The position numbers and the translations under genes were made by a program. A stretch of 38,853 nucleotides of DNA. Origin: a virus. Where the stretch lies: positions 1 through 38,853 of IMG/VR virus record IMGVR_UViG_2225789004_000002; one strand, given 5' to 3'. Under the pieces are notes generated by a model that saw nothing but the letters and a program-made list of their open reading frames with translations, was not told where the DNA came from and ran no database searches. Numbering within the stretch: position 1 is the first letter of the stretch; each line of letters begins with the position of its first letter. Shown in pieces: positions 26,907 to 27,317 of the stretch.

Positions 26907-26935
26907 TTGACTAAAGATAGTATTATATATAATAT
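26907..26935 (+). promoter_or_regulatory. sigma70-like promoter (TTGACT-17-TAATAT) for a candidate antisense RNA
   Basis: Hexamers read directly. A second promoter-like site, TTGACA-17-TACAAT, lies at 26825-26853. Confidence 0.4.
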
Positions 26936-26942
26936 ATAAGTA

Positions 26943-27027
26943 ATAATAAAAAATGATAAGGGATAACCCCTTATCAATCTAGTTTGGGTTGGAATTTTCG
27001 GTTGTGATGGAAATTCCAATTTTTTTA
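26943..27027 (+). ncRNA. candidate ~85-nt antisense sRNA overlapping the 3' end of the small toxin-like ORF
   Basis: The promoter above plus a plus-strand terminator (ttggaattt/aaattccaa 9-bp stem at 26989-27019, then T7). Confidence 0.4.
26955..26975 (-). terminator. terminator of the minus-strand small ORF
   Basis: gataaggg/cccttatc stem directly after the TAG stop, followed on the minus strand by T6. Confidence 0.6.
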
Positions 27028-27149
27028 TTACCTGCTGGTAATGAAAAAACTTTACCTTTTTGTAGAGTTTTCACTAGAGTAGTTACTTTTTCTACAAAAT
27101 AAGCTCCCACAAAGAGTAGTAAAACTACTGCAATGATAAAACCTTCCAT
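26979..27149 (-). CDS. small hydrophobic peptide (56 aa), type I toxin-like
   Basis: MEGFIIAVVLLLFVGAYFVEKVTTLVKTLQKGK...; AGGAGG 7 nt upstream of the ATG; it has its own promoter, long leader and terminator. Confidence 0.6.
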   Translation of the reverse strand: MEGFIIAVVLLLFVGAYFVEKVTTLVKTLQKGKVFSLPAGNKKIGISITTENSNPN

Positions 27150-27287
27150 GTATGTACCTCCTTCTTATAGAACTGCTGTCATCCTAAGATGCAGTGTAAT
27201 AGCAGTTAAAACCTGCTTTAACTAGCAGAATAACTGCTAATTAATACACCTAAGATGTTGAGGTATATACATTCCAAACTAAGTAGA

Positions 27288-27317
27288 ATTATATTATATT
27301 TTATTCTACAATGTCAA
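27288..27317 (-). promoter_or_regulatory. sigma70-like promoter TTGACA-18-TATAAT driving the small ORF through a ~130-nt leader
   Basis: Reverse complement of 27288-27317 reads ttgaca...tataat. Confidence 0.5.

Follow-up and report, generated by a model that had tools for sequence, protein, structure and literature searches.

The question raised by positions ~26800-27360 of IMG/VR virus record IMGVR_UViG_2225789004_000002, a contig of 38,853 nucleotides (nt) that was analysed over its whole length and is called the window here, is whether two converging transcription units, one for a membrane peptide of 56 amino acids (aa) and the other for a short antisense RNA, form a type I toxin-antitoxin (TA) module. 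Such systems are hard to find because their peptides are tiny and diverge fast. To our knowledge, almost none have been described outside a few models, such as Escherichia coli, Bacillus subtilis, Staphylococcus aureus, Enterococcus faecalis, Helicobacter pylori and Clostridioides difficile. A first-pass annotation of this DNA had proposed a type I TA-like module, and the analysis described here supports that reading: every in silico test able to contradict it came out in favour. We consider the cassette to be probably a phage-borne type I TA-like module as judged from its sequence, with toxicity of the peptide being the least secure step of the proposed mechanism.

All of the elements on which the earlier proposal was built (minus-strand promoter, leader, ribosome-binding site (RBS), open reading frame (ORF), terminators and plus-strand promoter) are present where it had placed them. 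To these are now added an upstream plus-strand promoter (26825-26853), an anti-Shine-Dalgarno core (27265-27260), pairing of the two ends of the mRNA (27281-27274 with 26987-26980) and a terminator at 27337-27360. The toxin-side unit comprises the following elements:

27288-27317, minus strand: toxin promoter, TTGACA-18-TATAAT, with TTGACA at 27317-27312 and TATAAT at 27293-27288 (12/12 match to consensus).
27337-27360, both strands: bidirectional terminator hairpin (minus strand, 9 pairs; plus strand, 7 pairs) that would shield the toxin promoter from upstream transcription.
27150-27281, minus strand: structured 5' untranslated region (UTR) of ~131 nt, with a predicted transcription start site (TSS) at ~27281/27280.
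27157-27162, minus strand: Shine-Dalgarno (SD) sequence AGGAGG, read from the sequence, 7 nt before the ATG (27149).
26979-27149, minus strand: peptide ORF of 56 aa (MEGFIIAVVLLLFVGAYFVEKVTTLVKTLQKGKVFSLPAGNKKIGISITTENSNPN), with one N-terminal transmembrane (TM) helix and a polar tail, net charge +4.
26948-26976, minus strand: intrinsic terminator of the toxin mRNA, with its stem at 26954-26976 (10 pairs) and its T-run (TTTTTT) at 26948-26953, -12.6 kcal/mol.

Transcription from this sigma-A-type consensus promoter would be expected to yield an mRNA of ~334 nt. The peptide has a KD15 hydrophobicity of 2.98, and its AlphaFold (AF2) model consists of a helix over residues 2-34 followed by a disordered tail, with a predicted local distance difference test (pLDDT) score of 66. 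A leader peptide or upstream ORF in the 5' UTR was considered and rejected, as none of 20 aa or more is found there.

The opposite strand carries the elements of a predicted antisense RNA gene:

26907-26935, plus strand: antitoxin-proximal promoter P-down, TTGACT-17-TAATAT (9/12).
26942-27027, plus strand: predicted antisense RNA, the putative antitoxin, ~86 nt long; its fold has two hairpins and an energy of -28.5 kcal/mol (z = -4.9).
26989-27026, plus strand: antisense terminator inside the toxin ORF (codons 42-55), with its stem at 26989-27019 and its U-run at 27020-27026.
26825-26862, plus strand: upstream promoter block P-up, TTGACA-17-TACAAT plus TRTTACA boxes, with hexamers at 26825-26853 (11/12).
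26810-26818 (plus strand), 26844-26852 (plus strand) and 26896-26904 (minus strand): cluster of ATATTACAA boxes around both plus-strand promoters, a candidate operator.

The predicted antisense RNA is perfectly complementary to ~80 nt at the 3' end of the mRNA, which comprise the last 16 codons together with the stop codon and terminator. P-up lies 82 nt upstream of the start of P-down, with ~55 nt separating the two promoters, and would yield a longer antisense transcript of ~170 nt with the same end.

Exhaustive searches with the peptide uncovered a single relative, while RNA and promoter architecture combined with gene context uncovered at least 14 variants in uncultured gut phages. Apart from an identical copy on a 4.7-kb ENA contig (L001), the sole true relative found by phmmer among 1.84 billion representative sequences was P0003, a peptide of 56 aa with 47% identity (E = 3e-7). 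It is equal in length to the window peptide and free of indels, the codon-position differences being 23/13/27. P0003 is encoded by an equally organised cassette on an 804-nt contig (L013), which aligns with the window across the whole cassette, has the T-rich tail of the 27337-27360 terminator at its start, and carries a different neighbouring gene, that of an endolysin-type protein with a PG_binding_1 domain. The second-best phmmer match, a protein of 1288 aa (P0002), proved to be a false positive whose score was inflated by eight weak repeat matches. A word-index search returned only the query itself, and a profile search built on two sequences returned only the two known members. Searches of IMG/VR, GTDB genomes and JGI metagenomes by peptide or back-translated motif gave chance matches only, among them a motif match inside a 301-aa ORF (L034). 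There was no real match to the cassette DNA by blastn among GenBank phages and no match to the peptides by tblastn among plasmids, and tblastn of three to four family peptides against 50,697 GenBank phage records gave only a hit at E = 0.5 in a Bacteroides phage and none in C. difficile. A DNA pattern of the leader hairpin added only chance matches inside genes (L080, L081).

Neither Pfam-A (E <= 0.1) nor NCBIfam (E <= 10) gave a match to the window peptide, which had no family in PHROG or PADLOC either, and Rfam at E <= 10 gave only chance-level matches over window positions 25000-30000. When the peptides of seven relatives were compared with Pfam and NCBIfam at E <= 1, only unrelated single-TM families appeared, with scores below the cut-offs.

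Relatives came to light instead through the surroundings of the gene. Homologues of the leucine-rich repeat (LRR) gene that adjoins the cassette led to a phage contig (L072) with a similarly built cassette directly after its endolysin gene, and a motif from the antisense-promoter region led to L079, a full cassette with a leader very close to that of the window, and to L078. The cassettes of the window, L013, L079 and L072 align end to end. The P-up block, expressed on the toxin-sense strand as the fixed-spacing pattern TGTAAYA-NN-ATTGTAAYA-N14-TGTCAA, was then found by an IMG/VR scan on 32 phage contigs, and 14 distinct cassettes carry, in the expected place and orientation, an ORF of 49-68 codons that follows an SD and encodes a single TM helix. 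In 12 distinct cassettes besides that of the window, the toxin promoter detected automatically has near-consensus hexamers spaced by 16-18 nt. The peptides fall into groups that can barely be aligned with one another: the window/L013 type, a 68-aa type beginning METLLVIT, a type containing KKIEV.AENSNS, and others. The first-pass annotation had named lack of conservation of the ORF in related phages as grounds for abandoning the proposal, and both the 47%-identical peptide of L013 and 12 further distinct cassettes with shared architecture answer that point. As far as can be read from these sequences, what is conserved across the cassettes is the RNA architecture and not the peptide.

That architecture is most evident in the predicted fold of the toxin mRNA, for which four segments of the window are important:

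27260-27271, minus strand: anti-SD segment (UGUAU.UACCUC), which pairs with the SD and start region, duplex -13.2 kcal/mol.
27180-27257, minus strand: central long leader hairpin, which holds AGCAG/CUGCU motifs as its inner stem.
27274-27281, minus strand: 5'-terminal segment UAGUUUGG, which pairs with CCAAACUA at the stop codon in the minimum free energy (MFE) fold.
26980-26987, minus strand: CCAAACUA, the 3' partner of the mRNA 5' end, within the region covered by the antisense RNA.

The anti-SD core lies 17-22 nt from the 5' end of the window mRNA, and in the relatives a pyrimidine-rich anti-SD is likewise found within the first ~25 nt of the mRNA and pairs with the SD plus the bases that follow it. 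The duplex has an energy of -8 to -16 kcal/mol in 13 of the 14 cassettes, and its two strands covary: UACCUC/GAGGUA in the window is replaced elsewhere by UACCACC/GGUGGUG, AAUCACC/GGUGAUU, GCUCACC/GGUGAGC, CACUCACC/GGUGAGUG, GCACCACC/GGUGGUGU or CCUUUCCUCC/GGAGGAAAG. Sequestration of the RBS by the leader fold, which the earlier annotation had proposed as a check, is predicted and covaries in relatives. The same annotation had described the leader as full of alternative agcag/ctgct hairpins. The motifs do exist (AGCAG three times, CUGCU twice), but they are better accounted for by one conserved long hairpin, which in the predicted fold brings the anti-SD and SD together. RNAalifold analysis of 11 leaders recovered this hairpin with 18 pairs, 10 of them with compensatory changes, and a comparison of the window with L013 revealed 8 compensatory pairs vs 0-1 in slid controls.

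A second closure joins the ends of the mRNA. The first 6-12 nt of the predicted mRNAs find a partner ~300 nt downstream, and of 14 independent MFE folds, 13 have six or more of the first nine nucleotides paired with the 3' end of the ORF. The complementary segments are of at least five unrelated types (UAGUUUGG/CCAAACUA, AUCGUUUG/CAAACGAU, GUUGUUA/UAACAAC, AAAUUAUUUAUC/GAUAAAUAAUUU and AAUUAUCUAAU/GUUAGAUAAUU). None of 250 decoy windows equalled the window duplex (-10.5 kcal/mol), and 28 of 2000 shuffles did so. Because MAFFT alignments misregister the 5' and 3' ends, both this fold-back and the anti-SD were scored by folding each sequence separately and by duplex tests. The main translational lock is predicted to be the 5'-end anti-SD together with the 5'-3' fold-back.

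These results bear on one of the alternatives, namely that no functional unit exists and that AT-rich intergenic DNA (30% G+C) has produced an ORF, promoters and hairpins by chance. Promoter-like hexamers are indeed common in DNA of this composition, with 34 sites found vs 25.5 expected, yet promoter sites matching at 12/12 positions number two in the 38.8-kb window, compared with 0.09 expected, and terminator-like sites are enriched tenfold in the region of the cassette (10 found vs 1.1 expected). Chance also accounts poorly for the retention, in 14 diverged cassettes, of an ORF that is 49-68 codons long and always has its SD and TM helix, for RNA helices that covary, and for fold z-scores, calculated against shuffles, of -7.25 for the full-length window mRNA and -6.2 for that of L013 (-4.1 for the window leader). 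An accidental origin of the whole arrangement is scarcely credible.

The predicted antisense RNA gene, of which the first-pass annotation had given a length of ~85 nt along with its own promoter and terminator, also reappears in the relatives, where the promoter and a strand-specific terminator are conserved. Homologues of P-down have the form TTGACA-17-TAATAT in L013, TTGACA-17-TATATA in L079 and TTGACA-17-TATAAA in L072, and the predicted equivalent RNAs of these three contigs are 78-101 nt long. The terminator that ends them is built to act on one strand: in the window its stability is -13.5 to -14.1 kcal/mol on the antisense strand vs -6.9 on the sense strand, and the antisense strand is the stabler by 3-10 kcal/mol in all 16 cassette sequences scored. 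In L013 the asymmetry is due to G-U pairs that become C-A mismatches in the mRNA. The U-run, complementary to the Lys42-Lys43 codons in the window, always falls on Lys-Lys or Glu-Lys (KK or EK) codons in the sequences scored, which accounts for KK(I/S/L)E being the sole motif common to all peptides. The C-terminal residues otherwise vary freely, while the antisense terminator stem is retained. A conserved ORF on the antisense strand was considered and rejected, every frame being broken by indels.

Upstream, the hexamers of P-up are invariant in four cassettes. Three of the four exact ATATTACAA copies in the window lie within 95 nt, with a further TRTTACA box at 26856-26862 (plus strand), and TRTTACAA boxes occur at equivalent places in L013, L079 and L072. 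This arrangement looks like an operator for some regulator, possibly the neighbouring Xre-type helix-turn-helix (HTH) protein.

The distribution of P-up beyond the cassettes reveals the kind of site that they occupy. On the 32 IMG/VR contigs the plus-strand block TTGACA-N14-TRTTACAAT-NN-TRTTACA lies 8-185 nt past the stop codon of endolysin genes that are not homologous to one another. Most of the 14 cassettes directly follow an endolysin gene, and the convergent neighbour was of endolysin type in all seven cassettes scanned, the types being Amidase_2 with or without CW_7 or SH3_3, M23, CHAP, and C39_2 with SH3_3. This proximity, which extends to the PG_binding_1 protein beside the L013 cassette, together with a single TM helix and polar tail, would suit a lysis-associated membrane peptide such as a holin, an antiholin or a lysis-timing factor. 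However, the window gene does not have the arrangement that marks phage holins, which are encoded in the lysis cassette in the same orientation as the endolysin and expressed late: it is carried on the other strand from the lysis and late genes and is preceded by its own consensus promoter, of constitutive type, and by a lengthy inhibitory leader. In the window the cassette is 2.3 kb from the amidase gene (23892-24494), with two genes between. The relatives already carry Phage_holin_1 genes upstream of their endolysins, and the cassette can be lost or exchanged for RelE pairs with the lysis genes left untouched. A role in lysis is therefore highly unlikely.

The cargo behind P-up is varied. 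In four contigs (L082, L087, L104, L107) it consists of a RelE gene (PF06296) paired with a small partner gene, and in two others (L097, L102) of lipoprotein-like ORFs. P-up is accordingly a slot promoter, serving the cargo carried behind the lysis genes, and is not specific to the TA-like cassettes. The main rival to a type I TA-like module is a lysogenic-conversion "moron" encoding a non-toxic small membrane protein, for instance one that acts in superinfection exclusion or modulates host membrane proteins. Its expression would be tuned by mRNA structure, the plus-strand hairpin would be a terminator of the late operon or slot, and the antisense overlap would be a by-product of convergent terminators. 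An independent promoter and terminator in a cargo slot past the late genes are what such an element would have. So, too, are unrelated cargo such as the lipoprotein-like ORFs under P-up, peptide tails that are not uniformly cationic, and a plus-strand terminator (26989-27026) that is the first, and the only one, after the last late gene and would also end the late operon.

Four observations speak for the type I TA-like module instead. A second, cassette-specific promoter-like site lies near the toxin terminator, with a -35 element TTGAC(A/T) in the four cassettes examined closely and as weaker candidates (9-11/12) in all 14. Three stacked layers of repression (anti-SD, 5'-3' clamp and antisense RNA) are typical of toxic products (PMC5416894; PMC6562991). 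RelE toxin pairs occupy the same slot in other phages. Finally, one natural derivative (L094) has lost the peptide part and kept the antisense gene, which suits a toxin-antitoxin pair better than a moron. This "orphan antitoxin" retains P-up and the proximal promoter region along with the complete antisense body down to the U-run, while an HTH gene stands in place of the toxin promoter, the leader and the TM-coding part; the contig is shared with an integrase relative (L006). Other derivatives are L078, in which both promoters are kept and the cassette body is lost, and L091 and L092, in which the ORF is cut to 27 codons. In L084 a full cassette is accompanied by a second 3' remnant. The L094, L078 and L091/L092 derivatives support the existence of a discrete antitoxin gene and of a dispensable, dangerous toxin part. 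On this balance a non-toxic moron is unlikely.

Several observations nevertheless weigh against a type I TA-like module. The window peptide and its relatives have no similarity to known toxin families in family libraries or GenBank phages. The peptides are very poorly conserved across cassettes, and several relatives are without the cationic tail typical of type I toxins (tail charge estimated by eye as approximately -1 in L079 and 0 in L072). All TSS and RNA ends are predictions. P-down taken alone does not exceed the chance level of promoter-like sites given above, and the finding that the three promoters of the window and L013 are identical at 34 of 36 hexamer positions compared with 27 of 52 spacer positions is partly circular, as the sites were picked for their resemblance to consensus. 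The strand asymmetry of the antisense terminator is by itself no proof of a dedicated antisense RNA, since this terminator would also serve the late operon. The window SD is 79% paired in the ensemble (probability of being unpaired, 0.21), but 58 of 200 shuffled leaders bury it equally, such that this burial is unexceptional and the argument from it rests on conservation, not on a single sequence. L013, L105 and L108 have a weak 5'-3' duplex. Finally, simulated antisense binding in a constrained fold leaves SD pairing unchanged, so that direct translational control by the antisense RNA is not indicated.

What the same simulation does change is the 5' end: when the antisense overlap is blocked, the probability that the first 8 nt are unpaired rises from 0.03 to 0.60. 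The 3' partner of the fold-back lies within the stretch that the antisense RNA covers, so that antisense binding should free the 5' end. With the 5' end freed and SD pairing unchanged, control would be expected to operate mainly via mRNA decay and not via RBS occlusion.

The proposed mechanism of the type I TA-like module can be outlined on this basis. The consensus promoter would drive synthesis of the mRNA for a single-pass membrane peptide, which would adopt a closed form through anti-SD/SD pairing, joined by the long hairpin, and through folding of its 5' end onto the stop-codon region. The folded mRNA would be stable and poorly translated. From the opposite strand, the ~86-nt RNA would be made from P-down and the longer form from P-up, both ending within the ORF. 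In a lysogen, the antisense RNA would pair with the mRNA, perhaps making first contact at complementary hairpin loops, in which no U-turn (YUNR) motifs were seen on inspection by eye. The duplex might then be destroyed by RNase III-type cleavage, as in txpA/RatA and bsrG/SR4 (PMC6562991; PMC3531473), and pairing would also displace the 5'-3' clamp and expose the 5' end to decay. If antisense synthesis stopped, for example upon loss of the prophage, or if the mRNA were processed, the stable mRNA could outlast the antisense RNA and be translated. The peptide would then insert into the membrane and arrest or kill the cell, which would favour retention of the prophage or act in exclusion. Prophage stabilisation has been demonstrated for the phiCD630-1 system (PMC7699646).

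The source phage is temperate and siphovirus-like, with a gut Clostridia-type host, and shares 43% identity in the large terminase with Ruminococcus gnavus phage RG-TP1. Late genes occupy the plus strand and the last one stops at 26797, while the integrase gene lies at 28204-29517 on the minus strand. The cassette thus falls within the cargo DNA that separates late operon from integrase, and has as its neighbour a gene for an Xre-type HTH protein (27499-27702). A 46-aa ORF at 27364-27504 was rejected as a partner gene, as it is without an SD and is not called in L001. The amidase endolysin gene is followed downstream by a collagen-like gene and then by the gene for a DUF285/LRR protein, so that over 23285-26797 the endolysin lies upstream of the collagen-like and LRR genes. 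In related phages (L073, L074, L076) the collagen-like and LRR genes are upstream of holin and endolysin. Because of this difference in gene order, the window cassette abuts the LRR gene rather than an endolysin.

Several further features of the window were recorded. A direct repeat of 49 nt (84% identical; 27960-28008 and 28167-28215) contains GTTACCTT motifs and flanks a terminator hairpin beside the 3' end of the integrase gene. Its copies are candidate integrase arm-type sites or attP, in which case the cassette would be at the far end of the integrated prophage. The second perfect promoter of the window (TTGACA-17-TATAAT, 29766-29794, minus strand) lies immediately upstream of the integrase gene. 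Before that promoter is a gene (29824-30537, minus strand) whose product of 237 aa has a PemK/MazF-like domain (PF02452, residues 76-135) and as its best PHROG phrog_1412, labelled "antitoxin mazE-like"; this may be a second TA-related gene. A tRNA-Pro (UGG) gene is present at 5429-5503 (plus strand), in the early or replication region of the phage. The window is a whole contig with a terminal direct repeat of 67 nt (1-67 and 38787-38853), which is built from imperfect tandem units of ~30 nt (ATAGGTTCAAGYGGAWATTCTGCAMAG), and is probably a circular or circularly permuted assembly broken inside the repeat array.

A much broader proposition can be formulated from these data: a widespread, previously undescribed type I TA family in phages of gut Clostridia, with a hok/AapA1-style fold-back lock that also stabilises the toxin mRNA, an antitoxin that, instead of occluding the RBS, unlocks the 5' end for decay in addition to duplex cleavage, conserved TRTTACAA boxes tying antitoxin supply to a phage regulator and the lysis-lysogeny state, and a dedicated "TA slot", marked by the promoter block after the endolysin, in which type I and RelE-type cargo are exchanged. 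We regard this proposition as doubtful when taken as a whole. The points of chief interest are a large hidden family, a fold-back joined with a 3'-overlap design, and a conserved cargo slot. If the type I interpretation is true, a new toxin family would be added, along with a search signature that is independent of sequence and consists of the anti-SD, the 5'-3' clamp and an antisense-terminator U-run on Lys codons. Among phages of abundant gut Firmicutes, a conserved post-endolysin cargo slot with addiction or defence modules would likewise be recognised. For Clostridia that are hard to manipulate genetically, the peptide could furthermore provide a counter-selection marker, a use to which C. 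difficile toxins have already been put (PMC7699646).

How, then, does the cassette compare with known type I systems? Among the features of the class are a small membrane peptide ORF with its own RBS, which is found in all 14 cassettes, that of the window included, and a cis-encoded antisense RNA gene with promoter and terminator, which is present as a sequence prediction only. Toxicity of the peptide that the RNA neutralises, and a stable toxin mRNA beside a labile antitoxin RNA, also belong to the class; of mRNA stability, the fold of the window mRNA (z = -7.25, 5' and 3' ends paired) would be an indirect sign. Prophage type I systems offer precedents for an overlap of convergent genes at their 3' ends, for sequestration of the RBS, for RNase III and for tandem antitoxin promoters (PMC6562991; PMC7699646). 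On sequence grounds, the cassettes are a new family that would work like the known type I systems and has sequence membership in none.

The systems of B. subtilis, txpA/RatA (skin), bsrG/SR4, bsrE/SR5 and yonT/SR6 (SPbeta, P6), are likewise carried on prophages and are likewise convergent, with RNAs that overlap at their 3' ends including the terminators, as is predicted for the window. They encode hydrophobic peptides of 38-59 aa, a few intramolecular G-C pairs of the mRNA sequester the toxin RBS, and the antitoxin terminator loop is likely the first contact that leads to duplex formation and RNase III cleavage (PMC6562991; PMC3834814; PMC3531473). The 3' overlap is ~80 nt in the cassette vs ~120 nt in these systems, and closure of the 5' end onto the 3' end of the ORF is a feature of the cassette that the review describes for none of them. 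SR4 binding extends the SD pairing, whereas simulated antisense binding in the cassette does not. The resemblance to txpA/ratA and bsrG/SR4 drawn by the first-pass annotation holds for layout and not for homology, as there was no Pfam, NCBIfam, PHROG or Rfam match, no membership in the TxpA, BsrG, BsrE or YonT families (Pfam, NCBIfam), and no sequence similarity of the B. subtilis systems to the window peptide or RNAs.

CD0977.1/RCd11, CD0956.2/RCd10 and other systems of the C. difficile prophages phiCD630-1 and phiCD630-2 share with the cassette a prophage location, a Clostridia-type host and a convergent toxin-antitoxin arrangement, as well as an AGGAGG 7-8 nt before the ATG, a hydrophobic N-terminus, a polar or charged tail and a tightly folded mRNA. 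As is predicted for the cassette, they have two antitoxin promoters that give long and short antisense forms, of which the short one does the work in C. difficile, and their demonstrated role is prophage maintenance (PMC7699646). The cassette peptides are longer (49-68 aa vs 34-53 aa), and tblastn of three to four of them against GenBank phage records revealed no similarity to the CD0977.1/CD0956.2-type toxins of C. difficile phages. The long antitoxin form of C. difficile is controlled by a riboswitch, while the cassette is without a c-di-GMP (cyclic di-GMP) riboswitch or other Rfam element ahead of its long form, and its upstream promoter is the general promoter of the cargo slot, unlike that of the C. 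difficile systems.

A 5'-3' fold-back like that of hok/Sok of plasmid R1 and aapA1/IsoA1 of Helicobacter pylori is predicted in 13 of 14 cassettes. In hok and aapA1, folding renders the full-length toxin mRNA translationally inert (PMC5416894), and a long-distance 5'-3' interaction together with SD sequestration holds it so until it is processed (PMC5416894; PMC6733600). The window peptide and those of seven relatives gave no match above cut-off to HOK_GEF or another Pfam family, the hosts of hok and aapA1 are Gram-negative, unlike that of the cassette, and the antitoxins of those systems bind a processed mRNA in its 5' or translation-initiation region, whereas the antisense RNA of the cassette covers only the 3' end. 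In both cases, nevertheless, RNA structure is conserved although conservation of the peptide is low.

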